A stretch of 58,060 nt of DNA, counting the filler, from Dugesia japonica (Eukaryota), in assembly GCA_001938525.1 (NCBI GenBank). It is 5 parts of 5 records of this genome, joined end to end, with 100 filler letters (N's around TTAATTAATTAA, not from the genome) between each part and the next. Parts side by side here need not be neighbours in the genome. Positions count along the whole stretch, not along the records: positions 10,842 to 30,036 come from MQRL01606696.1; 4 more parts are not named here. One strand, 5' to 3'. How positions within the stretch are numbered: position 1 is the stretch's first letter; each line of letters starts with the position of its first letter. Both the position numbers and the translations under genes were made by a program. The notes beneath the pieces were generated by a model. The model searched no databases. It worked only from the letters and a program-made list of their open reading frames with translations, and was not told the origin of the DNA. Shown in pieces: positions 12,937-43,976 of this stretch.

Positions 12937-15900
12937 TTACATATGTACTAATCTTAAATGCCACATTTCACATGTTTCACAATAATATTTATTTCCATGT
13001 GGCCAAGTTTTTGCTCCATTATCTTCTATAATTCTTTTATCGTCATAACCCATTAATGCTATCTTTTTTTGTTCTACTATTTTAATTTCATGTAAATTTG
13101 ATCTTAATGAAAAATTATTTCCATAAATTATTTGTTTAGGATTATTTAATACTTCATCAAAATCTTTCATCAACATTTTATTATTTTTCTTTACACCTTT
13201 ATTTCTTGAATCAAATCTTGGTATATTGTCTTTATCAAAATAACTATAACCATAAGATTTTGCTTTTACAAAATCACCTTGAATTATTTCAGAATTAGGC
13301 ATTTCATCTTTCATCTGAAATAAATCATTTCCCAATAAACTATCCAACTTTATTAAATTATCTCTACCTTTTATCTCAACAAAGATACAATCAGTATCTG
13401 AATAATGAATTTTATAATTATCATTTCCAATTAATGGATCCATTTGTTCAAATATAAAATTATACATTACTTGTTTTGCATGTTCAAGAATTGTGAAACC
13501 TATATATGGAAATTTGTTATATCTTAATTTACCTTTTGTCATGAGCATTGCTGCTACATTAGTTTCATTAAAATCATTTATTGTAAAGATTTTACTTGAT
13601 TTAAAATTTATTTTAGATGCAAACGTTTGATATGCTTTGTCATTATCTACAATTTCTATGCTACACCTATTTCTAATATTTTCAAGTGTTTTCCATAGAA
13701 AGCATTTAACATTAATTTATAAATGTAATCACCAAAGACATCACTATTTCTTTTAGCTTCTTTTCTTAAACCTATTAATTTGAGAACATGATTTTTAAAC
13801 CATGGAGATGTTCTCATTGAAATTTTCTTGTGAATTTTTTTTAGTTTCATTCCACGTTTTAAATATAAATCTAATGTACTTCCTACAACTAGATAATTTT
13901 TCTTATCAAATTGATTAAGTGTAAGTTTAACATTATTCACTCCAATTTTCTTATTAAAACTTTTTTGGTAATTACTTATCATGTCTCGTGTAATATTTAT
14001 TCTTTCAGGTGCTAATGGAAAATATTTTGTTTTGTCATGTATTTCTCTTGGATAATCTAAATCAACTTCATAAATAAAATTAATGTTATCAGTTGAAATT
14101 TCATATTCTAGCTCGCTGCACTCGCTCATTTCACCTGTTGGTAATGTTCTAGTCATACAACTTGCATATAAAGAATTTTCATCAATATATTTTATAAATG
14201 TATCATCTAATAAATTTTCAAGATATTCATCTGGAATAAATTCATGTGTATTCATCATTTTTATTAAATCTTCAAATTGTGCTTTATTTAGTTGTCTTGT
14301 ATCTGGATCTTTATTTTTGTTATGTGCAAATACTTGTCTTTCTCCTAAAACTCCAGAATATCCACCTCTAATTCCTTCTTCAACTAATAAGAAAATATCA
14401 TAAGTATTTGGTTTCGCATATTTTAGTTTACATTAGCATTTAACATTCCTGTTTCCCATGCATAACCTGGTGCTGAATATGAATATGATGCATCTAATTT
14501 TAAAATATTGTTTAAACATGAATCTCTAAAGTTTTCTAAGAAATCTGCTAAAATTAAAACATCTAANTTCATATAGTGTAACATGTAACACCACATATTA
14601 TCAAAATTATAAAAGTCTTCTAAAAATATTTTATAGTCTTCATCAGATATTTCTTTTTGTGAAAGTGTATTAAAGAAATCTTGTTTTACTGGTATTCTGT
14701 TAGATTTTAATAATTCTTCAACTTGTGTGATATTATTACCTTTTACATATTCATATGGAAAACTTATTTTCTTAGGTCTTAAATTAAATAATTTTAAAAT
14801 TGGATAATTATTTGATTGTGTTAATAATGTTCCCATTACTTCTACTGATGTAAATGGAAGTAATCTTGCAGAATCTAAAAATTTAATATTTCCAAATTCA
14901 AATGAAATATAATTATCTGAAGAATGTGGAATTATTTTTTGAACTGATGATGAAAACTTTGTTAATAATTCTCTAAAGAATAAATGATTGTCATAACCTG
15001 ATGCATTATGGAAATAAAATGGTATAAATAAATTTTTAACAGAAAGATAATTTAAATTACAATTATTACATGACCATCCTCGAAATTCTCCAGTGAAATG
15101 ATTATGGTCTTTAATTGGAGTTCCATATATTTCATTTTCACAATATCTACATTTTGTGCCTTCGGACAATTCTGGAACTTCACCAATAACTTGTTTTATT
15201 AATTTATTTTCTTTAATGTTTTGCAATTCATCATTAACTTCTTCTAAAAACTCAAAGAAGTCTTCATAAATGTATTCACCTGAAAATTCATAATAATAAC
15301 TTAGGAATAAATCTTGATAATCACTTTTGAGATAAATCCCTAATAATGCTTTTTGTTTTTTATCTGAATTTGTGTAGGCTTCAAAATCTCCAATAAGAAT
15401 AAATGGTATTTTATTTTTCTGATAATATTTCTTAAAAGAATAATAATCTTCATATGGAAAAATAATATTATTTGGTTTGTGTTTAATACAAAATTCTTGA
15501 TGTTTCTTTAAAACTTCTTCATCTGAATAACAGTTCATACATCGTATGCATGGATAATTTGAGTTTCTATTTTCTGATGTAAAAAATACAGTTAGATCTC
15601 TACATAAAATATAATGATCTTTATACGCTAACAAATTACATTTATTACTCTCTGGATCTGGTTTTATTGTGTAATGTGAAATGTGTAGTGGTTCAAGTTT
15701 TTTATTAACATTTACACCAAACACATTTATTTCTAAATTATTTTTTATTAATTAATTTTTATTTCATCTACATTCATAGGAAATTTAAAACCACTATATT
15801 TTAATTCTGTTAAATGTGGAATATAATTATCTACACGTTTTGGATGATCAACTATATACTTATGTGCTAAAATTGAATTTAGAAAACATTTGTCATCTTT

Positions 15901-16728
15901 ATTTTCTATGTTAATTACTCCTTGTTTTTTAAATGGTAATTAGAATATGTTGCACCAGCTAATGATTGATATTTAGAAAGATCTAATTTATAATCAATTA
16001 TGTGTGACATACTCCATCCTGAGCCTTCTCTATCTTCATCTTCAATATATCTTTGTAACTCATTAAATATTTCATTAACAACATTTTCAATTTCAGTTAG
16101 AACTGTAAATCTTTTAGTTATAGAATATGATGTACAATCTCTTTCAGCATTTTCATTATTTATTTCTTTTGTATATCTACATTTAACTGACATACTTATA
16201 AGAATCTTTTTTCCATAATTAAAATACTTTGTAATAATTTCTTTAACTTCATTTTGAAATGTGTTAATTAATATCTCTAAATGGTTGTGTGAATATTTCA
16301 TCCACATTTAATTTCATTGTCACTTTGCTTTCCTTGAAATATTCAATTTCATAATTTTTATATTGTCTTAATAGATCTCTAATTTCTGGTTCATAATCAA
16401 TCGCTTCTTCACCTGGTAATTCATCATATAAAACTTTATTAACCATTTGTTTATGTTTCTCAGAATTATAATGTGCTCTTGCATGATTTTGTCTTTGAAA
16501 TCTTTTATTACAAATTTCACAAAATAATGGAACAATCTCTAGATTGCCATAACGTGTAGCATTTAAATGTTCTTGTAAACCATTTTCTGAATTAAATGTT
16601 TTATTACATCTTTCACATCGAAATGTCTCATTTGTTCTAAAACAAATTCTAGATCTAACATGTCCAATTAAACCGGCTTTATTTTTAAACACTTTATTAC
16701 AATTTTCACATCTTATTATTGGACTCAT
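12937..16728 (-). pseudogene. polB: Protein-primed family B DNA polymerase (pPolB) with N-terminal C2H2 fingers and endonuclease-VII-like insert, frameshifted
   Basis: Fragments contain three C2H2 fingers, EGSGW, DFEA (Exo I), DHNHFTGEFRG..CNNCN, FHNASGYD (Exo II), FLDS, FPYEY, DENSLY (motif A), KLMLNAFYGK (motif B) and YSDTD (motif C). Confidence 0.93.
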
Positions 16729-16879
16729 TTTCTATAGTATAAATTTAATCACACCTACTAAAAAAGTGGGTGCCGCAAATAAAACGTTTTTTTCAATCCT
16801 TTTTTTATTTTTATATTATTTGGTATTTCCTCTTAAATAAAAATGCGCGGGTATTTTATGGCGCAAAATCGATATTTAA

Positions 16880-17165
16880 AATTTGACATTTTTTACATCT
16901 CATTTTTTACATCTAAAATTTTACATCATAAATTTTACATCATAAATTTTACATCTCAAATTTTACATCACAAATTTTACATCTCATTTTTTACATCTCA
17001 AATTTTACATCATAAATTTTACATCACAAATTTTTGCATCAGAAATTTTACATCATAAATTTTACATCAGAAATTTTACATTTCACATTACAAATTTCAC
17101 AAAAAAATTTTACATCACACATTACAAATTTCTCATTACAAATTTTTCAAAAAAAATTTTACATA
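16880..17165. repeat. Subterminal tandem array of ~15-bp AAATTTTACATC(A/T)CA units in the Polinton end
   Basis: Direct reading. Confidence 0.85.
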
Positions 17166-17376
17166 AAAAATGAAGGGTACCCCCTTGGAAGTAAATCGTA
17201 TTATTACCATTACTTATATTATATTATACAATTATATTATATTATATATTAAAATTAGATGACGATAAGAATAAGAACTAACAACTACATGTTACATGAT
17301 TGGATTATTTTCATAATCAATTAATTTGCACACATTAATTTGGAAGTATTATAATCATTTTAAATTGAAATATCAG

Positions 17377-17520
17377 GATGTTAAAACATGTTGATTATGT
17401 GAATAAAAAATCCGATGAGTTAGAAAATACTTTTGTTGATAATGAGAATAAAAATAAAATATCCAACTCAACTGGAAAAAATTGTATTTATTCCATTGAA
17501 ATCGATGACTGTGAAACAAG
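17377..17520 (+). CDS. Possible isolated host exon
   Basis: TATCAG/...AAG/GTAAAT boundaries with an open frame (MLKHVDYVNKK...CET); no recognisable motif. Confidence 0.3.
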
Positions 17521-17924
17521 GTAAATGTATTTTATTTGAATTTATTAAAGTATGATAATTTGAAATAAATGAAATCAATATATATCAAAGTATTATTAGT
17601 AAAACATGATTATGTACAATAAATAGTTTATTCACACATAAATAATATAATTCTAAAAATTGAATTAATGTTTGTTAAAAATTTCTACACTATTAAAACT
17701 ATTGTGCTGTTAAAATAATTTTGAAATAATTTAAATAATTCTTATCGAAAATATTAATAGTGTATCGATATAATAATGTCTTATTCCAGCATATTTTGAC
17801 CTTGTTGTAGTGAATGTCAAAGAATCTACTGTAAACGGTGTTGATAGTTTTAAATAAATCTGCCAGCAAACTAAAATGAAGCGTGAATAGTAAAGAGTGA
17901 AAGTTTAATTACGCTAAATTTTTG

Positions 17925-18932
17925 AGACTGCCATGGTGAGCAGCTAGGTTCTATTACTCCGATTTTTACCAATTTGGCTGTTTCCTTATTTGCAAATTCT
18001 TTTTTCTCTACTGTCATGGCATATGGTTTCTGTTTGCATGGTGTTTCGTCTGTTAATGGAATTGTATGCATTTTCGCGGTGCACATACCCAGTTCCTCAT
18101 CTGTCCATGCAAAAATGTCTCGAAATTCCTCTAGTAATTGCAGTATTGCTTGTTTCTGATCCTCCGTTAAAGTCTCCGTCTCTACTTTAAATGTTCTGTC
18201 GATTTCTGGTTCAGTGGCTACTTCGTCTATCACGTCAGGTTCTGGTTCGATGGGTGTTAATGTACCCATTCTGGAATTTGGTTTGATTTTGATGTCTTTT
18301 TCCGTGAAATTAATCAGACTAACTGGTATTTCTCCACTTTTGTTGACCGTAGTTATTCCGCCTGCTGTGGGCAACTCATACTGCCGCGCAAATCCGTCAT
18401 ATGGTTCAAAATAACAATCTCCTTCGTAGGCACTTTTGGTACTGACTACGCAGTATACCTGGCATCTACTGGGCACCAAAATTTCTTCTGTGGTAAATAC
18501 TTCGTGATCCTTCACATGGGTATAGCCTTCCAATGATTGTAGCCTTAATGTGGAGAAATTCAGTATACCGTTTTTCATCAGGATGGGAAGAATATCCGTT
18601 CCTAGGATACACTGTCCCATCATTTCTACAATGATCATATTGTGTTTAATTTTGTTATCCTGATATTCAACTTCACAGGCCGATTCTCCAAAAATTTTGA
18701 GGCTGCTACTATTTGCCACATCTGCTGTAGTGTTAGTGGGTAATATATTTTTATATTCTGTTATCGCAATTTCATCTATTGACAGCAACGATATGGTGGC
18801 TCCGGTGTCCACTAGTGCTATTATGGNNNNNNNNNNNNNNNNNNNNNTAATGGTTAATACTGGTCCCCCATTGAGGCTTGCACATACTACATCTGAAGGG
18901 TTATGACTGTAGTTTGATTGTGTTTTGCTTTT
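17925..18932 (-). pseudogene. pol: Pol N-terminus: aspartic protease (PR2), dUTPase-like region, start of RT; truncated
   Basis: ALVDTGATISLL..ILGTD; 'EILVPSRCQV...IPVSLINFTEKDIKIKPNSRMG'; 'IFAWTDEELG..HTIPL..PCKQKPY..GVIEPSCSPWQS', then abrupt transition to AT-rich host DNA. Confidence 0.9.
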
Positions 18933-18942
18933 ACTAGAGTAA
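18933..18942. repeat. Left inversion-boundary repeat ACTAGAGTAA
   Basis: Exact reverse complement of TTACTCTAGT at 21985-21994; lies where the coding strand switches. Confidence 0.75.
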
Positions 18943-21398
18943 TTCGGATTGTGCGAGATCAGTTTAATAAAATCGAGAACGGGTGGACGCGTGGACCTCG
19001 CCGAAACTCATGGCATGCATTAACCACCACAATACTTTTGTTGTTCTTAATGATGGGCAGAAGCGAAGCTATCCTAGCATATGATTGAGATGGGATGCAA
19101 GTTTGGAAAGAGGTATTCTCATTAGTAGATACAGAAGAATGCCCAGATGCAAACCCAGAGAANNNNNNNNNNNNNNNNNNNNNNNNNNNNNNNNNNNNNN
19201 NNNNNNNNNNNNATTCTATTTATCATTTATATCAAGAATCCGATTATTATAAGGCCCAAGTACGCGAGTGCTCAGTAACGGTGAGACCGTTCATATTTCA
19301 TTGTGGTTATTATAGTTATACGTTAATAATCGACCCCAGAACAGTGAGACACCCTGTACATCTAACCGGACAACAATGCGATGAAGGATTCTCCACAGGG
19401 AAAATTACCATGAAACATGGGACTCAAGTTGTTGCCAAGAAAGGACATGTAATCGACCAACCTATAGAAGCAGCAGGAAGCATATCCACTCATAAAGGCC
19501 ATGGTACCTACACCATACGAGGGAAGGTATGGACGTATGCGGTAGCAATAGAAACCTATACCGTGGAACTCAAGGAATATGAAGCGTTTTTCGATGCTCA
19601 AGATTTGACGATTAAGGGAAGATCGTACTGCAAGGCAGCCGATGGATCATGTAATACAGGCACATCAACATTGACATACAAAGTGGAACACCAGGACTGT
19701 AAGTTGGCACATCTAAAGGAAGCCGTGTTTAATGAATACCAAGGACAACGCGCTATAACACCTATTGACCAAACCCCAAAAGAGGGTAACCTAAAGGAGA
19801 GAATAGATATTATCAAGGAAACAATAAGGACAGGTCCGAAGTCGTATGACCAGCAATGGCATACAACGCCGACGGTGCTAATGTCTTCGGAACAGGACGA
19901 GACTATCCGTCTAATTAAAGGAAATTCAATGTCAAAGTGTGGGCAAATAGTATTCAAAACAAACTATAAAGGAATATTCGTGTCTGAACATCGAATAAGA
20001 ATGGCGAAAGCCGCAGTAATGTCCCAAGACATCAAATTACACCTTTACACCAACAATAAACTGGACAATATACTTCGCCAAATGCAAGATACCATCAGAC
20101 GAATGTACCACGACCTCATTCAAAATGACTGCACGTTAAACAAGGAAATATTAAAGACAAAATTAGCAATGACAGTTACGAACCCTGACAGTGTCACTCC
20201 ATTACTCCCATTGAAAAAGGGACAATTGGGTCGAGTGGTAGGAGAAGTGATGTACTTATATAAATGCAAGGCCATTGATGCCGAATTCTCGTCAAATCCG
20301 AAACACTGCTACAATGAGATAGAAATTATTCACAACAACGAGAAAAGATACGTACAACCAATTACTCGAATAATATCGCCGTTGGGCTATAGGTCGAATA
20401 TCATAAATTGCTCTAATGTATTTGGACCACAATACGTAATGATGGATGGGTCATGGATAAGATTCCCTCAACGAATGGCAGTAGGAGTCGAACCACGAAA
20501 ATTTTCAATGTTACAACTAAACGGGGGCATGCAATTCACCCCAATCGATATAAATAAAGGAGGGATCTATAGCAGAGAAGATTTAGAAAAAGCAAGGGAA
20601 TATATGTTGTTCCCAGTCCGAAGAATGCAAATTCTCTCAAATATAGTACAATTAACCAGTGGGACCAACATCGACGGACGAGTAAATTATGACGCATTAC
20701 TATCAGCAGACCACTTTCAAAAAGCCACCGAAAATGTCATGAGGAAAATGTGGGGAAGATTCATAATATTTGGCCAAGCAATGGCAGGGTTGTTGGGAGT
20801 TATGTTGATAATTTCAGTAGCACGAGTAGTGATCACGCAATTATTCGCATGTTTCGATATATATAAAAGAGAGAAAAAGGTGAATTGGAAAATGGTAACA
20901 GGAATATTTCCGTTTTTAGCCAAAACTATNNNNNNNNNNNNNNNNNNNNNNNNNATCGACAGAGTAAAGAGATTCATTCGGAAGCTCGGACAAATAAGAG
21001 GATCAGACAAGGAAGTTATAATGCAACTCAGACTATTATGTGAGGAAATGAGCAACGCTACGAAGAAGATATCATATTTCAACCAATTCAAAGAAAGGTT
21101 TAAAAACAAGGACGAAAGTAGCAGCAACAGCGATGATGATAGAGGAGAAAACAGTGGAATACCACATGTACCCAGTTATAAAACCGCTATGGAATATGAG
21201 GCAGAGTTCAAAAGGCAGCAATACGAAAAGATCAGCAAGATGCAACGACTAAAGAACGCGTTAAAATTCGGAGGAGGAGAAAGCACGCCAGCACCAGCAC
21301 AAATGTACTATAACGCGTATCCACAACACGGTTGGCAACCCATGAACCAAACACCACAACCAGTATGGGCATTAGGCCCTATGTACAACAATCCGTAA
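18933..21398 (+). pseudogene. env: Envelope glycoprotein, chuvirus/herpes-gB-like class III fusogen, with internal signal sequence and TM anchor
   Basis: In-frame upstream of the 767-aa ORF is ALTTTILLLFLMMGRSEA-ILAYD*(C) (signal plus YDC start, with TGA at the Cys position). Conserved Cys pattern: CSV..FHCG, C..G.C, NDC..K..L, GEVMYLYKC..CYNE..YVQPITRI..INCS..PQY...W. TM segment FIIFGQAMAGLLGVMLIISVARVVI. Confidence 0.85.
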
Positions 21399-21974
21399 AT
21401 AAGCTCACTACAAGCCCCGAATCTGACGTTGATAACTGAAAACAGTGTGTCGACTATAGACAGAAGGGTAATCGAACAAAACCTACGCACTCCGCATAAT
21501 CAGATAACTGAGGATGATAAATTAGAAACACAAACGGTATGTATGATGATGCCCCAGAGAGCGAAATTACTACAAAAAAGGATAAAAATCGACGGAAGAT
21601 GGGTAATAGCTATTATTGATACAGGGGCAAGTACGACGTTAGTTCATAAAAGGATATTAGAAGATTATCGCCTACTTAGAATAACAATTAATAAAGGAGT
21701 TATTATCACGGCCTCTGGANNNNNNNNNNNNNNNNNNNNNNNNGCAATATGTGCAATAGAAAGCGATGGAACTCGATTCTGGCATAAACTGCAGATAATG
21801 AACGAATTAGCATTCGATTGCCTATTAGGGTTGGACCTCTTACCACGCCTTTGTCCGGATGGAATATTGAATTTGAGCAAATTAACCACACGAGAAAATT
21901 ATAATCAGGAGTATGCACCGATAGGTTTTCGGAAAACTCGAATAATAACACAACCGAAACGACAATTCTTTTAA
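21399..21974 (+). pseudogene. Second retropepsin-like aspartic protease (PR1), in frame with env after a single stop
   Basis: IAIIDTGASTTLV...DCLLGLD; ORF 21429 is in the same frame as 19095. Confidence 0.85.
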
Positions 21975-21984
21975 CACAATTCTT

Positions 21985-21994
21985 TTACTCTAGT
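21985..21994. repeat. Right inversion-boundary repeat TTACTCTAGT
   Basis: Reverse complement of 18933-18942; adjacent 12-bp tandem duplication ACAATTCTTTTA. Confidence 0.75.
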
Positions 21995-22046
21995 TTATAT
22001 GAGAAGGTTGAGGTTTAGGACAGATGGCCTCAATAAACTTCGTCCA

Positions 22047-25000
22047 TCACCCCTGTTGCTTTATTAATGACACTATTTTATTCTGCATTAGGTTCACTAT
22101 TGGTAACTTACTGAGGATGAAGTTTTTTGACGGCTTGCATCGGGCATTTGATAGATGCGTTTGATTAATCAGATGTGCTATAGATACTACTATCCTTCCT
22201 TTTGTTGGCTGATCCTGTAATAACTCGTCCATGACTCCTTCTAAATTATCTCGAGTACCGTGACTAGTGCCTTTGGTGGCAGGAAATCTCTTAATAGCTG
22301 CTTCTATCTCTTTTACTAGTGGTCTGAGACTATCTGACAGTTGGAATTTTCCAATCCATATTTTTAATTCTGAATATAACATTAGCAATAATTGTCGTAT
22401 TACTACTTCGGTTGGCATATCATCATCTGTTGAAGTTTCGTGATATCTTTCTTGTGATAACGTTGCTAATCGCTTAGTTTGATGGCTTATTGACGTTGTT
22501 AATCGTTTTTGTTTCAATGCCTCCTCCTCCTCAGGATTTCCTGGAGGTTTCGTCCTTGGTCGACCTCTATTACGAGGTTCGGTAATCGTTTCGGCATCCA
22601 CTCTGGTACGTACCGGTTTTGGTGGTACCTCTTCCTCTTCTGTTTCTATTGGATTCTCCATCTCTAGGGGGTGGTTTGTATCTAGTAAATCATCCATTAC
22701 CGAGTATGGTAATTCCTTTGCTATTTTACTTAATATTGGTGACAAAGGTTGGTCTTCCAATATGTCATCCTCGTCTAAGTCGACCTTGCTAGGGTCATAT
22801 TTTTTGTTTCGTATTGGTCTTTGTTTCTTCAATTTTTCTAATTGGGGGGGAATATTTTGTAATTTGTAACTCGTTTCCGTCTTCCGCTGACTCATCTGCT
22901 GATGGTGATCCGAATATCTCACGCTCCCAATCTTGGCTTGTTCGTGGAGTCTCTTTTGTTTCTCTGGACGTTTCTGTACTTCCTGATTGATCTGTGGTAG
23001 GCCTTAATATCTGACTAGCCGTTAGTTGTGTACGGAGTTTATGTGCTTTTAGCATACTTGAAGTTTCCCCCATTATCGGTCTGATTTTATCCGCTGCTTT
23101 ATAAGGATCTGCATCTTTTCTCGTGAGAGTACCTCCTAATTCAGGAAAAATCCACAACGTATTAAGTTTAACTAAGTCTATTTTCATTAGTCCAATTGTT
23201 GTGGTATCTTCCCCCACTCCGCTTTCATCCACGAGTCTGTATGGTGGTTTAAATGGTAACTTGTCTCGTAGGTGTTTTACCGTATTATATACCGGTATTT
23301 TAATCGGGATTTTGTCTCCTTCAGGATCTATTATTCGAAATTTAACTTCCAATGGTGTGGCTTGCCCTATCTCCGCTTTCCGCCATTTGACCAGAATTTT
23401 ACTAAACTGAATGGGATCCCATAAATGCGCTGCTTTGATGGCTAGAATTAATTGTCGCCATTTTCTGAGATCTTCTACTGCCAGATCTTGTTGTAAGGCT
23501 ATATTGCATCGTCGTATGATTTCTGGTTTTACTAATTTGTCCCATACTAATAATTCGAACAATTTTGGCAAATTGTCTTCTGGCTACTCGTCCCTGACCG
23601 GGGTGTTGGTCAGAGCCGCTACCATCTCTACTCGTTGTTTATTTTGTTCTTGTTTGGGAAGTTTGGCTCTAGCGAATACTAATGGATGTATCTCTTCTAT
23701 ATAATATTCCACCAACTCTCTAGCTTCCTGTTTCCATTTTTCCTCCGAAACTCGTGGTCGCCGTCCCTTCTCATTCTTTGCAGTTACATAGATTTTTAGT
23801 TTAGTGCCTGGCCAAACCCCCATGTATTTTACCGGCAACCTCATTTGATCTGGTTCTATTACGTGGTTGTAGTAGAGTACTATATCGTCTTCTTGAACTG
23901 GTGTTGGTGCTCCAGTTTCCTCCTCGTTGAGGATACGTTGTTGATTCATAAATTTTACAATCCACTTGCGCAACTTAGCCCATGGTTCATTCATTTGGAT
24001 CTGCCATTGAATTTCACTTGCATCTGGGAATTTTATTATTACGTTGACGGTTTTGTTGGCTATCATACGAACTGCTTTATTTAATATCGCATCCATTATG
24101 TCCTCCGGCATTTGACTTATAGCTCGTAGTTGATTTAGCTTTAGAACTAATTGGATGACTTTGTCATGTCTTAATAGTTCCAAGTTTTCTTCCAATGTTA
24201 AGAGTATTTTCATTATTACTCGCGCCAGACTTCCCCATGTTTTACTGTCTTCCCATAACTCAATATTTATTTCCATTGTTCTGTCGTCGATTACTTCGAA
24301 TAACTGCCCCCCGTTGATATCTTGTTCATACAATCTCTCCAGTTGTTGTACTACTTCCCCCATAGGTTTTACTGGACCTGGGATGTAGTCCTCGGGTTTC
24401 TGTATTTGGAGAAGTGTATTTTCACCGGGTCTTAACCCGACGTCCAGTAAATGTTGTTTCCCCTCGAACTTTATGGGAAATCTCAAGTGATTGCTGGTAA
24501 TCACATAGCCTTTCTGTTGATCAGCTATATCCAGTGATTCTATAATTTCCTGTTTTCTCCTGCTGACGTGCTATTGAAATGTGGTATATGCATGACAGCC
24601 AATTCTGGTTCCCTCCTCGATTTCTTGTTTGGAGTCAGATATTCTATCGTGATATTCAATCTTCTCCCTGAGCACTTGCTTTCACTGCCCCAATGTATGG
24701 CTTGATTACGGATTCCCACCTGGCGCGATCTTCTCTTGCTAATTCAGTTAGCTTTGTCAGATCCATTAATAAATTTAATGCTTTCCAAAATGTTGTCCTA
24801 GGTATCCTTTCCTGGAAATAACAGAAATCCGAAATTATCTTCGCGATCCGCTCCGTCTGAGGAGAACTAAAAGGACCAGCGAATTCAGGTTTAAAGGGTA
24901 ACAATCGAGGTTGACCCTTATTCTCTGAGATTCCCCCCTCCTGCTCTTCTTCATCTGAAGTTAGGTCTGGGGTGTTAGGGTCATTATCCCGAACCATGTT

Positions 25001-27460
25001 TATCTGAGCTTTGTGTTCTCCATAAGTGTTTATGAGTCGTTCATTTTCTACCGGTAATATTTCTTGTAGATATAAGCTCATCATATTAAATATGAGTTGA
25101 TCGGTGTCTGGCATTTTCGGTATCGGAAGGTCTACCGTCATTTTACGTGATGTTAGTTTGATTTCTGTGATCTCTCCTGGCTTGATATCATGGAGGAAGA
25201 TGTGATCCGCTTTTTCAGCTAACAGGATCGTTGTTGCTCCCGCCTGCATTTTATAGGATTTGATCGATTTTGGCCATAACCATTTTTTATAGGTTTCAAA
25301 ATGTGTCGGATAGTTAATCCTTCCAAGGTTATCATATCTTCCTTTTTTATGTGCCCTTCCTTGTTGAGCAGACTAACTCTGATGGAGTATTCGGATATGG
25401 TGGAGGTATTTTGTACTTCTTCTTCGTATAAATTTTTCTCCTTCCACCATTGGGCACGGGCCCACAAGCTAAGTTGTCCATAGGTTGCCAAATCTCGTAG
25501 GTTGATCATCATCTTCCAATATACTTTGATATTCACCACCGGGCGTGTTTCGCGTGTTACTCTCATCAAATCATTGATAGCGTGAAATGTGGCGGATTCC
25601 TCTGTTATTGGTTTGGTATAGTTCATCCGAATATCGCGTATGGTTGGCGTCCCTTCTGGAAACACAACTGCCTTTGTAGTACTTATTGGTAGATTATCAA
25701 TATTCTGTAGTTTCTGATTTTCTTTTATTTGTTCCTTCATACCTGACAACACTTCAGTTACGTATATTTCTGTTATCTCTTCTATCCTTTCTTCAAGGTC
25801 TGGCGATGGAACTGTTCGAGTTTCTTCCTCCACATCTAGTTCACATATCTCTCCAGGTTTTGAGTGACATTGGAATATATGTTTGTCCTCGTCATCTGTT
25901 TCTACCAATTTGCCATTTATGAACAGGGGTACCATATTTAATCCTTGTTCTCGCCACTTATCGGTAACGGCATCCATTAAATCCATCATGGTTATTCCTT
26001 GTGGTTTTAATCGGCTATATTTAGTCAATTCTTGTTCATTTTTACCTATATTCAAATATAATTGATAGTTCCGAATTTTGGTAGTTGCTAATATTTCTTC
26101 GGCATATTTGCCTAATCATGAGCCATTGGTTTTCGATTTCTTCTGGTATCTCTAGTCCATCGTATATGTCGTAAATTCTATTCATTATCATCCAATAAGT
26201 TTTTCGGGGTAAGTTCTCCTTTTCCATTTGTACCCGATTAACCATTTCTTCCACCTTGCGCATTGCTACTACCTCTCTTGACGGCATCTGTCGCATTCTT
26301 ATCATGTTGCATTTATCTTCTCTTCTCTCTAATCGTTGTCTGAGGAAGTCATTACGCGTCATTAGCAACTGTTTCCTTTCCTCCTTTGTCAGTTTATCCT
26401 TCTTTCCGAGGACCGTGGAAAGTATTTTGATTTTAATTGGCTCTACCCCTTGTTTATATAGATATTCCATTTCTCCCATGATTTCTAAAGCTGATCTACC
26501 AGTTTTCGTTACCCATACGTCATAATCGATACCTGGGTGTTTGTCCAATATTACTAGTTCGATTTCCTCTCCTGGTTTTATTCCGAAATTGTAGATATGT
26601 CTTTTTCTGGCATTAAAATCCACTATTGCACTTGGAGTACATACGTATTTACTCATCACACAGGGATAACCTGCTTGATTGAGTGCCGCTTCTAGATCTT
26701 CTACCATTAGCCCCGTGAGTGTCAATTTCATATTACCTTCTGGGTTATACAACCATACTTGGTAATCCGATAAGCCCATATTGGATATTACCCAATCGTA
26801 ATGTACTGGTAACCATTCTGTCCAATCACTTTCTTCAGTGGTTATTAATTTTATAACTTCCAATAGCTCCACCAATCGATTTGTCAGTATCATGGAGTTT
26901 CTGGGCGGCTACCAATATCTCATCAATTCGGGCTAATGATAACCTTGATGCCTCGATTTGTCCCAATTCTAGGTGGTCCATTAGCCTTACTGTCCCCAAC
27001 CTTTTCCGCATGTATGTTTGTGACTGGAGGGGCACAATTTCTTTTAAGAATGTTTGCTCGAGATTATGATATAACTCGCCTGTTTCTATTTCTTGAATTA
27101 CTATTTGGGGTCTGAACACTAATCCCCAGTTAATTAACTTGATTATGGTTATTTCATAAGGTCTTGCCCCATAATAGATTAAGTTCTTATCGCCTGGGGT
27201 AATATTGATTCCGATATTGCCGATTTGTATTCTATGTCTATTCCACTTCGTATTCCATTATTGCTGGTCATTAAATGGTAGTGCGTCGAAGATTGGGTTT
27301 ACTGCCATACCCTTAATGCCGTTCACCTCTCCCCGTTTTATTTCGTTGATTGCTTCCTTTAAGTGTCGCACCGTCATTCCTTTTAATGCGAGCTTTAGTC
27401 GCTTTGGAGCTACCTCTGGGTTGTTATGCCATACATATTGAATTTCGAACTCATAGTCTT
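22047..27460 (-). pseudogene. Gag-extension polyprotein: tandem ubiquitin-like plus helical modules, then a low-complexity/AT-hook-like region and a helical domain
   Basis: Abutting or overlapping same-strand ORFs joined by single stops or frameshifts. A recurrent [H/L][I/L]xxxGx[K/R]PGE-x-x-x-[L/I] motif appears every ~600-750 bp. RGRPR is in the 22047-22922 ORF. Confidence 0.7.
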
Positions 27461-29250
27461 CTAGTTGGGTTTCTTGATACAGCTCGGTAATATAGTCCGA
27501 TATCGTTTTCTGCCAATTAGCCCTTACCTTGGCGTGTACTTGAGGGTGCTGATATAGTCGGAGCAACTGGTTCATCACCCGTCTTCTTCCGGTGGTTNNN
27601 NNNNNNNNNNNNNNNNNNNNNNNNNNNNNNNNNNNNNNNNNNNNNNNTGTTTTGTAGATGATCTCTTCAGTCCAGTCAAATTCTGGTGACGTAATCAATA
27701 TTCGCTTTCGAGTATCTTCCATCTCGGTGACTTCCGTTGTTTCGTCATATTGGTTATAGATTTGCCTGTGTGTCCTGATCATATTACACTGATTCTTGTG
27801 TGGTTCGTTTAATAAGTTCCTTTTGGCTAGTCTCTCCTGCTGTACCTGCAGATCTTGGTTTTGCCACTTAAGCCAATCATTTTCCTGTTTCACCTTGTGG
27901 TACACATTGTCAAAAGTATTTTGATGTACTAAATTAATTTGTCCCTTATTTTGATTTACTCGTTGCCTTAATCTCTCGTTTTCCTCCATTAGATTATCTA
28001 GCTTCGCATTCTGATTCCGATTATAATTGGTTTGATTTCCGGCTTGACATTCTTTTGCCATATGTCCTCTTCTATTACATTTATAACATACNNNNNNNNN
28101 CTTCAAAAAACACGTTTCCACATTGTGGTTGGTCTTCTTGCAATAGGTACAGAATCGATTGTTGTTACTATTATTGCCTCTACTTCTACAGTTGCGGGAT
28201 ATGTGTCCTCTTCTTCCACACGTATTGCATTGGATGTCTCGATTATTTTGCCAATTATTCCGAGGTGCATTAAATCACCCATTATTTACTCTAGGATAGT
28301 TAGGTCTATCATTCCGGTTGTTTCGTTCCTGTCCTGGGGTCAGGGTTTTCATCATTGATTGTGTATTGGGTATAAAATCTGATATTCGCGGTGTGGTTTC
28401 CTCAGTTTGTCCTTCCCCTTTGAATATCCGTTCGGATGGTCTGTCTGCCACGATTAGCAATGTAGCCAGCGCATCCTGCAGTGTTACTGGTTTACTCAAT
28501 TTTACCATCAGCTTAGCATTCTCATCGCGTAATCCATTTAAGAATATGGCCAATACTTGACTGTCTTCCAATTTGTCTCCTAACACTAATTTGCCGCGAC
28601 TCTTAAGTTCCATCATGTACGCCTGTGGCGTTTCGCCTTTTTGTTGTTTTCGATTAGTGAATTGTTCGAAATCTTGACCGGTTAGTTTCAAATTTTGGAA
28701 ATTGTCAATTAGTATTTTTACCACCTCTTCCCATTTTTCGGGGATGGACTCCATGCCTTTAGTGTGATCCCAAAATACAGTTTTGGCCACTCCTGTTAAG
28801 TAAGCTGGTAACCGCTTTCTTTTTGTTTCCTCATCCCATCCACAGGTTTTGGCGTACATTTCGTAATTTTGAATAAATTCGTCCAATTTTTCAGGTATTC
28901 CACCAAAATATTCGCCATCGAATTTTATTTTCCACTCTGGTCGATGGTTTTCAGTTTTGGTTGTCATGTTGCTATCTTTTGCTGTGTTTGTTTCTATTTT
29001 CGGGTTTTGACTTGTTATCGTGTGGGTTTCTGTTTCTGACTCGTTTGTCGGTATTACTAGTGCGTTGGTGCTTCCCTGGTTATTGTCAGTTACTTCTATG
29101 ATTTCTTGTTCCTCTGATGTATAACTTAATCCGCTTGATCGATTACTATTCTCTGGAGTTTTATTAGATGTGGTTTTTTGGTTGGTTTGAGCTGATGGTT
29201 TCTAGTGTTTTGGTTTTAGATAGCGCGGTGGCTTTGTCGAATTCCGATTT
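27258..29250 (-). pseudogene. gag: Gag: capsid domain plus three CCHC zinc knuckles
   Basis: FGG..EKLDEFI..YE..W....RLPAYLTGVA..W...KQQKGETPQAY..L...FLNGL. In frame past one TGA (28275): CNTCGRRGHISRNC, CTYCKKTNHNVETC, CYKCNRRGHMAKEC. Confidence 0.9.
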
Positions 29251-30036
29251 TTTTAGTAAACAAATATTCTCGTCCGGGTCTAAATAAAGAGATGTCTTTT
29301 TTAGTTTCCTTGAAGACTTTTGTCGGGTGAGTTGGGTTTCTTTTAGAACTGAGCTTGGGGTAGATATCCCGGATGTGTTAGACCTTGTAAGTGGCTTCCT
29401 GTTTTCTGAGTCGGAATCTATCTTGTCAGAGTCCGGCTAGTTGGTTTCTTGTTGTACTTCGGTTTTGTTTTCGGGTTACTTGTAGCTTAGGTTTCTAGAA
29501 TAAAAATTTCTCCTTATTGTCTTTTCTGAGGAGGCAATCACTCCTTTTCCAGATTTTAAACTTACTTTATTATCATGCTGCTCAACACTTGTCATCATAG
29601 CCCCGCAACCATCTTCCTTTGATTTAATTACGTATACATTTAATCTTCCTTTAATTTTATTTTAATTTTCCTTAAATAAGTCTTCCTTTAATCTTCTTTT
29701 TATGCTTCCTTAATTTCTTCCTAATTAATGCCAGGCTATTTCTTCCTAAATGTGGGAGTACCCATTTTTCTGTAGTATAGGCGAACTCTTCTGGNNNNNN
29801 NNNNNNNNNNNNNTTTAATATGCCGGGGTAACAGTGCACACTTTTAATAATTCTTCCTGGGGGAGTACCGAGAGTTTTCTGAGGGATCAGCGGTCCCATT
29901 TGGAGTACCCTTTTCGTGTAGGCGAACGCTTCCGGCTTCCTTTAATTCTTCCTCTAATCAGGTTCCTTTAGTGTGCTTAACTACGTGGCCTTCCTTTAAC
30001 ATACTGGTTAATGTGCTTAGGACTTCACGTATCTTC

Positions 30037-30136
30037 NNNNNNNNNNNNNNNNNNNNNNNNNNNNNNNNNNNNNNNNNNNNTTAATTAATTAANNNNNNNN
30101 NNNNNNNNNNNNNNNNNNNNNNNNNNNNNNNNNNNN
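30037..30136. other. Artificial contig-joining spacer
   Basis: 44N-TTAATTAATTAA-44N. Confidence 0.95.
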
Positions 30137-33100
30137 AATTAAATATTTTGGAGCTATTACAAAGAAGGAAAATAGTTTCATTTTTATGGAATTCATGCCT
30201 GGAGTAAGTTAGCTGGAAAGTATTTTAATTTATAGTGTTTTTGTTTAATTAAATTATTTTGGTTATCGAGTAATTTGACTAGAAAAATTAGATTTTTTTA
30301 ATTATACGGATTGCTGTTAGCTTACTACTAGCTTATCTTAGAATAACGGAAATTTGACATCGCTAACAACAATTCTTATTTTTGTTTTAATTGGTGTATT
30401 TCTATAATTTTTCGTTTACATTCTTTATTATTTGTTTCAATGAGATGAAATTATTTATTTTTTGTTTAAATTAAAAGGTATTATGTTTAAATAAAGTGAA
30501 ATTGTTTTATTTTTGTTTAAATTAAGTAAAATTAACGATTTTAAAGTAAAGGTTTCTAAAGCAATATTAACATTAGCAGCGCTGGACAATATTAACATTA
30601 AATATTCTCCGAGCAATATTAACATAAAAGGTTCCGCAGGCAATATTAACATTAGTTGCTCAGGTGTCATACTATTAGATGTTCGATGGCTCACACTATT
30701 TATTTGCTTCAAGTTTCATACTATTGAATGTAAAATGGCTCATACTATTCGTTGCTCCAGGGCTCATACTAAAAGATTTCTATGGGTTCACATTCTTGCC
30801 TACACATGATATTAGATAATCTCTGACTCATACTATTAAATGCTCCGGCATTAGATGATCCTTGGCTCATTAATATTAACTGCTCATCCGATGAAAATCT
30901 TTGTTAATATTTATATGTTTAAGTAAAATTATTCTATCTTAGTAAAATTAATGAAATCAGTATATTATTTGCATTCTAAGTAAACTGATTAGCAATAATA
31001 TTATTAAAATTATTTTCATACATTGCTTCAATAACAGTTTTGTTTGTATTCCATACCGTTACATTACCTCATCCGACATGTTCAGTTCGACGGAGCGAAT
31101 CCATCAAGGTCCGTTAGCATCTAATCGAGACCTTTCAAAATTTTATTGTGAAATTATTTGTGTATTATTTCATTGTGAAATTATTTACAAAGAAATTTAG
31201 TAATTTTTTATTTGGAAATATTTTATTTAATTTGACTAATTCAGGGATCTTTACGATCCCGGATTTCTAAAAGTACACCAATTGCATCTAACAAAGTTCT
31301 TCAATACACAAATCAAATTCTTGAAGGTCTTCAATTTTTGCACGGTATTGAAATCATTCACAGAGATATCAAACGTTGGTTTTTATAATAATTATTTTAC
31401 AATTTGTAAATTGCGATAATTAGCTGATCATATTTTATTGGATAATGATGAAAATGTAAAATTAACTGATTTTGGTTTGGGAATATCATTAAATAACACT
31501 GACGTCCTCAAAACACAAGCAGATTCATTTTGTGGGACACCATATTATATGGCTCCAGAAATCATCAATGGGGAAAAGTATTCATATGGCGTTGATATTT
31601 GGTCATTAGGAGTTACTCTTATAGAAATGCTTACAGGTTTGAATTCCATGATTATTTGACATTTTTTACGCAATGATTACTTATGAATTGTTTGCTTGGA
31701 TTGACTGACTTATTTAGTAACCAAAAAGATATTTAATACTTGATTGGGTTGTGTTAGATGAGTTTGAAGAACTCATCGAGGAATTGAATTCACAAATAGC
31801 TTCCATAAAATATTTATTCACTAAACAAAACTATGATTATCAATTTGTTTTTTACAAACAAATTTATATTCGAAACGAAAAATAAAAAATATCAGACTTA
31901 GGAAAAATATTTCATTAATTCAGTTTATTTAAAATTTTATTAAATAATGTAAAATTTAAAAATACAATAAAAAATATATTTTATTGAAAATCAGAAATTC
32001 GATAATTTTAAAAATTACAATAATATTATAAAAATTATAAATTATAAAATTTTATTAAACGGTTAATTTTAAAGTTTATTTTACAAATTATTTTAGTAAT
32101 TCCATTAAAAGATTTCACAAATTTGATTTCAATAAATTCCGTTTCAAAATACAAAAAATTTAAATCTTCTTTTAAAAACTATCTTACACCCCCCTTTTAA
32201 GAATTTTTTTGATCTTCTCTACGTTTCTTTAGTTTCTATCTGCCAAGATGTAACTTCTGTCGTGAACGTTTTTCTTGATCTTATAGGTATCTTCTAATCG
32301 ACATTGTTTCATGTTTCAAATTTCACTTTGGTTAGTATATCTTTGTGCACTCTTTGAGTATCTGATTCGTACCATTTTTCTCTGCTTATTCTCTTCCCAA
32401 AATACACAGGACTTTTCCTGCCGGTCTTCTGTTTTGTAGCATTCAAAGTAAATTCTTTCTCCGGAAATAAATCCGCCCAATCTGAGTTTGATTTTCTGTA
32501 AGTGTCGCATTTATCATTACTCGCATAGTTCTAAACTGCCTCACGATTGTGTAACGATGATTTGGACTCGAAAACTTGAGGGTAATTCCATGTTCAACCG
32601 CAAAATTTTTCATTGTTTTACACTCAAATGCTCTTCTTCAATCAACTCTTATTTCTCTCGGACACCCGAACTTTAATATCCATTTCTCCATTATTACTTT
32701 CCCTATAAATTCTTGCCATTGCTATCAAAGCTACATATTTACTTCATTGATCTATTATACCGAGAACCTATCTTTTTCGACCTCTTCTATGATGCAATGG
32801 TCCATACACACATATAAATAACAGTTCATACATTTCAGCTGGCTGCGTCTTTGTTTCTTCCATCGTTTTTGTTGTCAGCACTTTGGTTTTCTGGCATGTT
32901 ATACAACTTCGCACAACCTCTTTTAATTTTCTCCTCAACTTTTTTGCGTTATATTTATGCTTCGTATACGCTGCTACTTTTCTGCTCCAGCATGACATAA
33001 TAGATGATGGATCCTCATTAAAACCTCTTCTATTTTGTGATCAGATATCCACGTTCCTTCATAATTTTTTCCAAAATTGCCTTGCTTCTCTCGAATATCT

Positions 33101-35916: not shown

Positions 35917-36649
35917 TATTTTACATCGGTAATCTGGTTTAATAATAATATTAATCTATGTTGTTGTCTGACCTCTTAATATTAGCTAAAATCATATATT
36001 TATATTTAATTAAATGTGACATCATTGATTGAATCATGTGTGATTAAAACGTGCGAATTCTAAATATAGTTAGTATGCATTCCACACAACGGTGCATGTG
36101 TGTTTTCATAAATCCAAGTGTAATGGAGAATACCAGAATAAAACGAAACAATGTGGAAAAGTTTTATTATTAATCGATAATGCATCATGATATTGCGAAA
36201 TTATCTTGCTGCTAAAAAAAATAAATTATTCTACGAGACAAATTAAAATAATGTTATAATAGTAGGGGCATATGGCCTTTCTAGAACATGATGTGACGCA
36301 ATCACCGTTCACACCTCAATGTAAACAACAATAGGTGTGAAAATTCACACCTTTTGAGCCAATTCTCACTTTAATTGTAAACAGTGAACAATTGATTTTT
36401 TATTGTTTTTTGTTTAAAGCGTTGCGCATTAATAAATTGACTTATTATTAATAATAATATTATTATTTAAATGTGTTTATAGTTGTGAATTTTTAGACCT
36501 TTGACGACAATATTCACATCTAAATGCAAATAATACATTTTTATTGACTTGTAAATTTTCACGCATTATTTCATCTTACAGCTATTTTCATCCGAATTAA
36601 TATTTTTTTCATTCAATTTAATATTTCAGAGTTTAATATCACTGTTTCT

Positions 36650-37024
36650 ATGTCTACGGTTAACAGGGCCATAGACAAGTTTAACTACAGTGTTAAGAGA
36701 ACTAGTCTCATCCCCGAGAAGCGTAATATGCCGGCGACTCTGACTTTAAGGAAAACTTATGCTCAAGAATTCAATAATTTGGTGACCGACATAAATACTG
36801 AATACAACTTTTATCTCATAGATGAAGTTGAATTCAATCTTTCTATGAAGACTCGCAGAGGTCGATCTCAAATAGGGCAGCGAGCTAATCATACAGTATC
36901 TGCCCTGAGATCACGAAATATGTCAGTCTGCTGCACTATGTCAAAAAATGGAATTATTAAATATAATGTTCAAACTACAGCATTTAATACAAAAAATATC
37001 TTACTTTCTATTTTCTGTGTTTGA
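36650..37024 (+). pseudogene. Tc1/IS630-type DDE transposase fragment
   Basis: STVNRA..YSVKR...FYLIDEVEFNLSMKTRRGRSQIGQRA. Confidence 0.75.
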
Positions 37025-38189
37025 TGTATTTTAAAGCATTTTCAAAATTTTTCTAGACTATTAAATTGAATCAGAAAAATATTAAATTGAATGAAAAAAA
37101 TATTAAATTGGTTGAATAAAATATTAAATTGACTGAATAAAATATTAAATTGACTGAATAAAATATTAATTGGGATGAAAATAGCTGTATTATTATTATT
37201 ATTATTAAAATATTTTTTATAGTTGTGAACTTTCACGCCTTTAAACAAACAATGAATTTTTCATAAGCGTGGTAATTTTTTTGACATTATTTTTTGTAAT
37301 TGTTATTAAATATATTTGATAAACTTTACAAATGTTTCATGGATTTAAATGTTTTTATAGGTGGCGAATTTTCACAACTAAATGTAAATAATAATTTTTT
37401 ATTGTCAGTAAATTTCACACATTATTTTTATTATTATTATTATTAAAATGTTTTTTGGCGTGAATTGTCATACCGTTGACTTGAAATGAAAATGAAAATT
37501 TAACTAATGTATCAAACCTAATAAAGAAATAACATTATATTATAGTTTCCTTAGGGAAAATAGAAGGAAATAATTTATGTTCGAAACTATTCTGACATTG
37601 AAATATAAATAAAAAAATTTATTTTTTATTTAATAGAAATAATTATAATAAAATTAATAATAATTATAATAATATTAATAATAATAACAATCATAAAAGA
37701 GAATAATGTTTGAAAGTTATTAATTAAATTTTTATATTTCACGGTAGAAAATAATACTTGAGGATCTTCCTTTTCATATGTTGACTTTAAAGGTGTAAAA
37801 ATTCAGTGAATATTAATTGATAGTTCACGCCTTATAAAAACATTTAAATAATTATATGATGGTTTCATAGTGAAATGCTCAATGTGCAACGCTTTAAATC
37901 CATCACGATATCGTATTCAAAGTGAAAAAATAAAAATATCAAATTACTTTTCCTAAAGACAGAAAACATTAAAAGATAAAATAAATTTAATATGTTCATT
38001 GAATATAAATAATTATACTTTGATAAATCTTAATAATTAATTAAAGTAGATAGATAGTAGTGCACTGGATCATCCTCCCCGACGTTGACGTAATCCGATT
38101 ATTACATAAGTGATTCAGTATTTTTCTTATGTATAGGCGGAGGCACACATTTGTGTACGTTACATAATGTATTTAATTTCGTCGCGAGA

Positions 38190-38681: not shown

Positions 38682-38781
38682 NNNNNNNNNNNNNNNNNNN
38701 NNNNNNNNNNNNNNNNNNNNNNNNNTTAATTAATTAANNNNNNNNNNNNNNNNNNNNNNNNNNNNNNNNNNNNNNNNNNNN
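38682..38781. other. Artificial contig-joining spacer
   Basis: 44N-TTAATTAATTAA-44N. Confidence 0.95.
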
Positions 38782-43350: not shown

Positions 43351-43499
43351 AAGTATATGTAGTATACCCGTTTTCACCCAATATAATTTACAACGTATTT
43401 ATATATCATTAAACTGCATTTTTCATTTATGTAAAAAGTATGTTAAGGTAAATCAAAATTTAATTTAAAAATAATTTACAGGGAACTTATTTTTTATGG

Positions 43500-43890: not shown

Positions 43891-43976
43891 AATTTATAAT
43901 TAAATCACTAGTTTTCAATGAAAATTCTTTTTTTTTCATTCATTTTTCAATTATAAATAACTCAAATCATTTTCAG

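Follow-up and report, generated by a model that had tools for sequence, protein, structure and literature searches.

In this study, we found that a 3-kb stretch of a decayed retrovirus-like element in Dugesia japonica (GCA_001938525.1) is truly inverted and that the 10-bp inverted repeat at its ends was probably created by the inversion and did not serve as its target. Our preferred reading, which we consider reasonably likely, is of a single accidental event of which the repeat is mostly or wholly the scar. The window (the whole stretch of DNA analyzed, 58,060 nucleotides) joins parts of five records, and about 12 kb of the element is present on the part taken from MQRL01606696.1. The features of the element and of its two breaks are listed in Table 1.

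The inversion was evident from the strands on which natural single-frame relatives aligned. When 150 of these were compared with the window by tblastn, 11 were split between strands, with gag on the minus, env on the plus, and protease-RT on the minus strand; two of them covered all three regions and the nine others covered env and one flank. No mapped relative among the 150 placed env on the minus strand, and the gene order of env followed by protease was found in 12 of the 17 relatives scanned. Base composition gave similar limits, as the maximal excess of A over T spans 18966-21965, with edges at most 33 and 29 bases from the outer ends of the repeat arms. The alignments of the relatives, which are of low identity and have fuzzy ends, begin at 18933 and 18939 (plus strand) and at 18935 (minus strand), and the terminus of the Bcl-2-like domain lies on the minus strand near 22029, to the right of the break. 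The change of coding strand coincides with the two arms. The strand split and the A/T skew thus bear out the initial annotation, which had described an inverted cassette of env and protease with env antisense; the perfect 10-bp repeats that it placed at the strand switch are also exact.

Spacings at both breaks match those in the relatives, so no large loss occurred at either. The half-distances between the two proteases sum to about 165 codons in the window, and adjacent proteases are 133-287 residues apart in nine of ten pairs (from 6 of 13 relatives). The gap from the Bcl-2-like domain to env is about 62-65 codons here and 49, 51, 62, and 79 residues in the four relatives that have both. 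These comparisons are with distant sequences: a search for close relatives gave no match at E 1e-30 among 304 candidates, and a second among 2631 candidates gave a single match of 26% identity.

Table 1. Features of the retroelement and of the two breaks, in window coordinates
Feature	Position	Strand	Basis or remark
Protease 2, dUTPase-like domain, and first RT residues	17874..18932	-	PF00077 E 0.0018, PF00692 E 0.0019 (both under curated cut-off)
Candidate template of the 8-base piece, separated from the left arm by 8 bases	18917..18924	-	Sequence match
8-base direct repeat, copy 1 (half of the proposed palindrome)	18928..18935	+	Sequence comparison
Left arm of 10-bp inverted repeat	18933..18942	+	Exact, non-extendable, unique in window
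Inverted segment (env, protease 1), opposite in sense to the remaining element	18943..21984	+	tblastn of relatives, A/T skew
env: chuvirus-like (Monjiviricetes) fusion glycoprotein and leader	18943..21398	+	PF24664 E 5.6e-76 (19089-21395)
Protease 1, in the env frame, stop at 21972 inside the duplicated stretch	21399..21974	+	PF13975 E 1.7e-07
12-base direct duplication with 2-base spacer (14-base insertion), beside the right arm	21962..21987	+	Copies at 21962-21973 and 21976-21987
8-base piece spanning the duplication spacer	21973..21980	+	Exact reverse complement of 18917-18924
8-base direct repeat, copy 2 (other palindrome half)	21982..21989	+	Sequence comparison
Right arm of 10-bp inverted repeat	21985..21994	+	Exact reverse complement of left arm
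3-base microhomology to the final three left-arm bases (18940-18942)	21995..21997	-	One of four end comparisons matched
Bcl-2-like domain with a stop inside it, bordering the right break	22029..22334	-	PF00452 E 0.051, profile E 0.031 (both under cut-off)
Accessory coding sequence, about 5 kb, with diverged internal repeats, stops, and frame changes	22400..27560	-	ORF-to-ORF matches
gag, with a retrotransposon gag domain and CCHC zinc knuckles, interrupted by stops	27261..29201	-	PF03732 E 1.3e-04 (just under cut-off), PF00098 E 6.5e-09
Upstream part of element, into a 100-base N-and-linker break	29202..30036	-	Any 5' LTR lies beyond the sequence

The inversion lies in a decayed Ty3/gypsy retroelement. 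Its gag-env-pol arrangement is of a known kind, and its closest likeness is to the planarian Burro. Relatives align across the gag region, and both the position in the window and the mapping order of the relatives place env between gag and pol. The env is of the gB type (chuvirus-like): its best Atlas score, 0.96, was to the PF24664 family, and it groups with polyprotein-borne copies (support 0.985, from the best 45 of 131 usable matches). A sequence search found no solved relative of env. Its leader aligns with those of the relatives, but stops interrupt the reading frame at 19086 and 21396, the latter between env and protease 1; the two share one frame, and 12 of the 17 relatives scanned run through without a break. 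Tandem proteases are found in 6 of 13 relatives. On the minus strand, the dUTPase-like domain occupies residues 188-247 of its ORF, between protease and RT. The copy here ends at the start of RT, whereas gypsy-type RT, RNase H, and integrase follow env in 4 of the 17 relatives scanned. No BEL/Pao-type Pfam domain was found in the 12 ORFs of the element.

Between gag and the right break, the accessory region is built of repeats that match one another from ORF to ORF (E 1e-07 to 2e-04) and matched no Pfam family at E 0.01. As to a ubiquitin- or SUMO-like domain in this region, Pfam gave nothing beyond UBX at E 0.17. A single-sequence model of 96 residues (pLDDT 72) gave no Foldseek match at E 0.001 and no clear fold match; its SUMO rows in VIA-align (Z 3.7-4.0, rmsd 2.2-2.9 over 54-58 residues) ranked below unrelated rows. 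The model of a 328-residue accessory stretch reached a pLDDT of 39. Next to env, the evidence leans toward a Bcl-2-like domain, judged from sequence. PF00452 was the sole Pfam match when the stop was read through as X (model positions 15-100 of 100), and the stretch was the best non-member match of a profile built from four relatives (profile positions 7-105). In those four, a Bcl-2-like domain precedes env, and the stretch here lies where they predict it. A BH1 sequence pattern matched 0 of the 13 relatives, and a PDB sequence search with the stretch returned nothing.

Burro, or GYPSM1, belongs to the giant gypsy-like elements of planarians (PMC6431247). As far as the available account of it goes, Burro and the element here share gag with CCHC knuckles, a long accessory region, a Bcl-2-like domain (probable here), a mononegavirus-like env that separates gag from protease, and a dUTPase-like domain that follows the protease and precedes RT. 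Burro is characterized by LTRs, a size of more than 30 kb, and a single giant ORF in which env shares the frame of pol; about 12 kb is present here. The likeness is one of description, and the copy here differs in being broken, cut in RT, and internally inverted, with two proteases and an accessory region built of repeats. In the relatives P0023 and P0004, the region ahead of env gives weak matches of the ubiquitin-like and Bcl-2 types, and MATH/TRAF, BIR, or ankyrin matches were absent from what remains of the element. More broadly, GAG-ENV-POL errantiviruses with an env of the HSV/gB type have been described from Nematoda, Bryozoa, and Platyhelminthes, in a report that classes chuvirus-like glycoproteins as gB-like; its table has entries for 9 flatworm elements and, by our count of 72 mentions, 36 rows for nematodes (PMC13524379). 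Like the element here, these are Ty3/gypsy elements with env upstream of pol, but they are intact and often multi-copy, and the accessible part of the report mentions no internal inversion. Anakin elements of mosquitoes carry a chuvirus glycoprotein (PMC7642597, PMC10084718), which is of the same Pfam family and likewise lies inside an LTR retroelement. Anakin, however, is BEL/Pao, whereas the nearest relatives of our element are gypsy-type; P0029, the only match with DUF5641 before env, stands far down the list of relatives. Troyka was set aside as a comparison, the available portion of its report having no mention of env before pol (PMC12440569).

At the breaks themselves, the two arms extend by no base in either direction and the 10-mer does not recur in the window. 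Within brackets as wide as those around the breaks, a perfect 10-bp inverted match would arise by chance with P 0.0025-0.032 (four settings, 4000 random window pairs each). Outside the arms, similarity is low: of 13 flanking bases compared on each side, 3 agree on the outer side and 1 on the inner. The initial annotation had also proposed an adjacent 14-bp insertion made by duplication and a palindrome at the restored junction, and both find their counterpart in the sequence. The duplication is one of only two near-tandem duplications of at least 10 bases in 12,166 bases. The palindrome is seen as an 8-base direct repeat, the remnant expected after inversion if a palindrome with 8-bp arms stood at the protease-side break. 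The element as it stands has no palindrome with arms of at least 8 and two with arms of 7. Some role of the palindrome in the inversion is plausible. The junctions as they stand fold no better than shuffled sequences (z -0.08 to 1.37, all four strands), so that a hairpin role would be conjectural. One feature escaped the initial annotation: the reverse-complement match between 21973-21980, within the insertion, and 18917-18924. A match of this length has P 0.02 in 60-base windows to 0.04 in 120-base windows (3000 draws each), and the piece was likely copied from the flank of the other break. The 3-base microhomology at 21995-21997 is weak alone, as such matches are common in AT-rich DNA.

Reading frames at the two breaks behave differently. 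On the protease side, the insertion alone fully explains the frame offset. On the other side, the Bcl-2-like domain and env differ in frame by one base, which is the remainder of ten, so the exchange at that break was not conservative; the junction reading quoted in the initial annotation is out of frame with the upstream Bcl-2-like protein. An unrelated frame change of this kind within about 190 bases would have a chance of about 0.07 at the local rate (5 in 7155 bases). The offset, the microhomology, and the templated piece in the insertion are together the grounds for a repeat made by the event. Some properties of the offset should be kept in mind. As evidence it is of the one-in-three kind, in a copy with many lesions, and it depends on the weak Bcl-2 match (E 0.03-0.05). 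A surplus of 7, 4, or 1 bases fits it as well as one of 10, and a small repair indel between two older repeats would yield the same offset.

These features suggest the following sequence of steps. The 10-mer would originally have been part of a short palindrome in the linker joining the two proteases, and a replicating polymerase most likely stalled there. The polymerase would then have switched strand at the 3-base microhomology in the interval from the Bcl-2-like domain to env and copied env and protease 1 backwards. Slippage near the first site could have made the 14-base insertion with its piece from the other flank, after which the 10-mer would have been copied a second time before a switch back. 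Alternatively, a staggered break at the linker and a second break, followed by fill-in and joining of the polymerase-theta type, would give the same product, and the two routes are indistinguishable from it. We infer from that product which copy of the 10-mer is the newer, the order of the steps, and the part played by the palindrome. Each route has precedent in the available parts of earlier reports. Template switches of the type 3-1-2-4 leave an inverted repeat around an inverted spacer and need no prior repeats (PMC5453318), staggered breaks leave inverted duplications, often from just one break (PMC1885836), and SD-MMEJ produces repeat motifs and templated insertions whose source lies no more than about 30 bases away (PMC7407515). 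As proposed here, the template switches and the staggered breaks of Drosophila flank the inverted segment with an inverted repeat made by the event. The scale differs, with 3 kb and a 10-base repeat here against tens of bases (PMC5453318) and duplications of 46 bp to 1.9 kb (PMC1885836). Background on planarian rearrangements is given in PMC11410931.

The initial annotation had favored a one-off inversion through the repeats. The single event stands, while the repeat was more likely made than used. A one-off, microhomology-mediated exchange between two pre-existing 10-bp repeats, with small indels during repair or later, is nevertheless a possibility that we regard as doubtful rather than remote: the arms are perfect at both breaks, above chance expectation, and the insertion beside one of them shows that repair added bases. 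Such a conservative exchange, however, would have kept the phase of the Bcl-2-like domain and env, where the observed offset is exactly the remainder of ten, and it would require an extra indel within the same 190 or so bases. An inversion made during reverse transcription, by strand switching of RT with later integration of the flipped copy, appears very unlikely. Reverse transcriptases switch templates at short matches, and the product would look similar, but two switches to the opposite strand in one particle would be required. Nothing in the window favors RT over a host polymerase, and the LTRs that would date the event are missing. We give as little credence to an artefact of assembly or library, in which the flipped piece would be absent from the DNA of the animal. 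The assembly is a draft with many runs of N, but no N interrupts either junction; the nearest lies 91 bases from the left one and 247 from the right (the left arm is 225 bases from the nearest run of 50), so a contig placed in the wrong orientation is not the cause. An overlap of ten bases gives an assembler too little for a join, and chimeras made in amplification usually have one junction and not a matched pair. The insertion with its templated piece resembles a polymerase product.

A reversible, recombinase-driven switch of env, with the palindrome as the binding site around a 2-bp core, had been raised speculatively in the initial annotation and is the least credible reading of all. Hin/hix and Gin/gix are bacterial DNA-invertase switches with a 2-bp core and sites of about 26 bp, and sites of serine invertases resemble 8-bp arms around a 2-bp core. 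The cassette here looks invertible in the same way, as the segment holding env is bounded on either side by a clean inverted repeat and the arms and core are of those sizes. Unlike in those systems, there is no extended shared site, recombinase found, or useful second state. The two sites are alike over ten bases only and the palindrome is at one of them. No serine or tyrosine recombinase was found in the 54 ORFs scanned against Pfam (including 27 of the 31 ORFs of at least 55 aa between 10842 and 17900), in agreement with the initial annotation. Because the flipped piece comes from the middle of a gag-env-pol polyprotein, the flipped state separates pol from gag and disables pol as well, and RT is cut. 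The insertion and the frame offset indicate a damaging event.

The inversion may have been what inactivated this copy, as had been supposed, but the copy has many other lesions. Upstream, five frame changes occur at the eight boundaries between long ORFs, and stops lie in env and between it and protease 1. RT breaks off near 17900, in a stretch free of N; the alignments of relatives reach as far as 17898-17925, and GC has fallen to the host level by 17750. A kinase exon of the host matched many animals at about 52% and did not help to place the host. No RNase H, integrase, or LTR of the element was found after the cut, nor was a repeat of the element (LTR) found elsewhere in the window. An RT piece at 38193-38396 starts where the RT of the element ends in the numbering of the relatives. 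We rejected it as the continuation, as it belongs to another family, with its own upstream remnant, 27% GC, and a position beyond an assembly break.

As it stands, the finding matters little: the class of env-bearing gypsy elements to which this decayed copy belongs has been described, and the rearrangement is an ordinary one. What is new is the reading of the terminal repeat as probably a scar made by the event. The finding would be far more important only if the flip recurs in independent insertions or yields antisense small RNAs. We think it improbable, with one copy seen in the window, that the protease-linker palindrome is a recurrent flip point; no report of such a flip was found in the literature searched, which left most subscription journals outside its coverage. 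If it were, independent insertions would repeatedly become flipped copies in which the promoter of the element itself drives antisense transcription of 3 kb of env and protease. These copies could feed small-RNA silencing of active relatives, for which the host might keep them, or could alternatively act as a one-way off state of env. The junctions also serve as a worked case cautioning against reading terminal repeats as recombination sites. Together with its relatives, the element widens the range of Burro-like polyproteins to include tandem proteases (6 of 13) and, in four, a Bcl-2-like domain before env.

The env and protease 1 segment of the decayed Ty3/gypsy element is truly inverted, and the cause is an ordinary one. 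We searched the env piece against 1.84 billion cluster representatives and used the best 150 of 999 hits at E 0.001. The top matches were long single-frame polyproteins, with env followed by protease in 12 of the 17 scanned and with RT, RNase H, and integrase also downstream in four of these 17. When the best 150 of 999 relatives were mapped on the window, env lay on the plus strand in all 150 and on the minus strand in none, while further minus-strand matches among them fell in protease-RT (4), gag (4), both (2), or the accessory region (1). Two relatives (P0006, P0017) each formed one chain in the order gag, env, protease-RT, with env on the plus strand and the other two on the minus strand. 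Immediately beyond the right arm of the repeat, the minus-strand frame, read with X at its one stop, matched no Pfam family but Bcl-2 (E 0.051, weak, nearly the whole model), and the best non-member match of a profile built from four relatives with a Bcl-2-like domain before env was also found there (E 0.031, weak). Both weak matches coincide with the place predicted from relatives. Spacing across the two breaks agrees with relatives as well, so little sequence was lost.

The element is of a known kind. It contains a zinc-knuckle gag, an accessory coding stretch of about 5 kb made up of repeats, a Bcl-2-like domain, an env of the chuvirus-like type (PF24664, E 5.6e-76), two proteases, a dUTPase-like domain, and the start of RT. 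A tree of the best 45 among 131 usable hits places the env with copies carried in polyproteins (support 0.985), and no close relative of the element was found among the 304 and 2631 candidates searched. For planarian Burro elements the same domain order is described, with an in-frame env after gag and before pol (PMC6431247), a likeness at the level of published domain order. Gypsy elements of GAG-ENV-POL order with a gB-type env are likewise described from nematodes, bryozoans, and flatworms (PMC13524379). Env before protease is thus normal in this family, and the antisense env is a lesion of the window copy. Tandem aspartyl proteases, two to four each, occur in six of 13 relatives (P0001, P0002, P0003, P0007, P0008, P0011), with an additional protease downstream of integrase in P0001; they are a trait of the family. 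The passage on Burro makes no mention of them (PMC6431247). The accessory repeats look ubiquitin- or SUMO-like by eye, although Pfam and fold comparison confirmed no family or fold, and 36 long relatives mostly lack a match to the region.

Coordinates of features in the window
Feature	Position	Strand	Description
Left arm	18933-18942		10-bp inverted repeat
Right arm	21985-21994		10-bp inverted repeat
Flipped piece	18966-21965		extent by A/T skew
Env piece	19215-20927	+	search query
Bcl-2-like profile match	22029-22334	-	
Accessory region	22400-27560	-	about five or six diverged repeats; ORF-to-ORF E 1e-07 to 2e-04
Near-tandem duplication	29713-29749		12 bases, 25 apart; upstream non-coding part
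GC block	about 17800 to 30036		39% GC
N/linker blocks	10742-10841, 30037-30136, 38682-38781, 48995-49094		identical, 100 bases; N runs around fixed 12-base linker
Polinton/Maverick-like remnant	11805-16731	-	protein-primed DNA polymerase B (E 2.6e-12), endonuclease VII (E 4.2e-06), C2H2 zinc fingers, weak hexon IIIa match
Smaller LTR-element remnant	780-4054	+	protease and integrase matches
Direct repeats flanking it	839-989 / 3904-4054		95%, 3065 bases apart; may be LTRs
Gypsy pieces	32300-33450, 38190-38680	-	integrase, RNase H, RT; different family, lower GC
Inverted repeat beside them	33438-33580 / 33748-33890		143 bases, 87%
piggyBac-like transposase remnant	50790-51918	+	PF13843, E 2.3e-24
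DDE_3 (Tc1-like) remnant	36548-37024	+	between 50-base inverted repeats 36577-36626 / 37140-37189
Likely host exons	5513-5734, 10552-10722, 31420-31656, 35710-35913	+	C2-domain-like and Rab-like by eye, plus protein kinase
Tandem arrays and stop-free frame	16872-17174, 34961-35446, 43408-43979, 43961-47017		tandem arrays (14-, 41-, 22-base units) and a 1018-codon stop-free frame

The two 10-mers that the initial annotation placed at the coding-strand switch are reverse complements of each other without a mismatch; the match extends no further, and the sequence occurs nowhere else in the window. Among random window pairs drawn from the element, with brackets set by coding strands alone, 0.25% to 3.2% gave a perfect 10-bp inverted match by chance. 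The 12-base duplication next to the right arm (part of a 14-base insertion) is also present; one other near-tandem duplication of at least 10 bases occurs in the element. An 8-base direct repeat reflecting the palindrome proposed for the restored protease 1/protease 2 linker is there too. The element in its present form (12,166 bases) has no palindrome with arms of at least 8, so one spanning a break is unusual. The proposed palindrome may have triggered a polymerase stall or DNA break, a part that we infer, since both junctions as they stand fold no better than shuffles.

The one-off inversion that was proposed to have put env antisense stands as an event, but we consider the 10-bp repeat to be probably its product, and an exchange between two repeats older than the inversion to be rather unlikely. 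Such an exchange, if conservative, leaves reading frames in phase, whereas those flanking the Bcl-2/env break are a single base out of register, which is what ten leaves after whole codons. This is what a surplus repeat copy would cause, although a surplus of 7, 4, or 1 bases is equally consistent. At the protease-side break the insertion alone explains the frame offset, which puts the 10-mer at home there. At the local rate of frame changes, the chance that an unrelated one of this kind fell within about 190 bases is close to 0.07 (arithmetic estimate), and an indel added by repair itself would raise that chance. Two further traces point the same way as the frame offset, to the repeat as product: a 3-base microhomology of the left-arm end with the bases immediately beyond the right arm (one of four comparisons), and an 8-base piece, lying across the 2-base insertion spacer, whose reverse complement stands at 18917-18924, next to the other break (P 0.02-0.04). 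Template switching of type 3-1-2-4 is described as leaving an inverted spacer bounded by an inverted repeat, with no need for prior repeats, although the model was devised for far shorter events (PMC5453318). Staggered breaks with fill-in are reported to create inverted repeats too, often with one site only duplicated, but those duplications are longer than 10 bp (PMC1885836), and insertions templated by sequence no more than about 30 bases from the break are described as a mark of polymerase-theta-type joining (PMC7407515).

A recombinase-driven, reversible env switch, which had been raised as speculation, is not supported. Outside the ten shared bases, the sites agree at 3/13 and 1/13 positions, the palindrome is present at one site only, and the flipped state breaks up the polyprotein at two points rather than turning off env by itself; the absence of a nearby recombinase held among the 54 ORFs scanned. 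That recurrent flips generate self-silencing antisense copies is very improbable, and the literature searched, with most subscription journals outside its scope, did not describe the flipping of an env cassette in any LTR element. An assembly error is an unlikely source of the flipped piece, as both junctions are N-free and matched, with a templated insertion.

Multiple lesions mark the copy as dead. Frame changes occur at five of the eight boundaries between long ORFs in the upstream part, the env-protease frame has stops at 19086, 21396, and 21972, the Bcl-2-like domain has one stop, and RT is truncated near 17900 with nothing of the element beyond. The inversion may have struck a copy already dead.

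The window background is AT-rich, animal-type DNA of about 25% GC. The four N/linker blocks are probably artificial joins of assembly scaffolds, making the window a patchwork; the element's scaffold would thus be 10842-30036, shared with the Polinton/Maverick-like remnant, and DNA past those points may not be its true neighborhood. The 1018-codon stop-free frame listed with the tandem arrays is very AT-rich, contains N runs, and matched no Pfam family. The protein kinase exon is about 52% to many animals.
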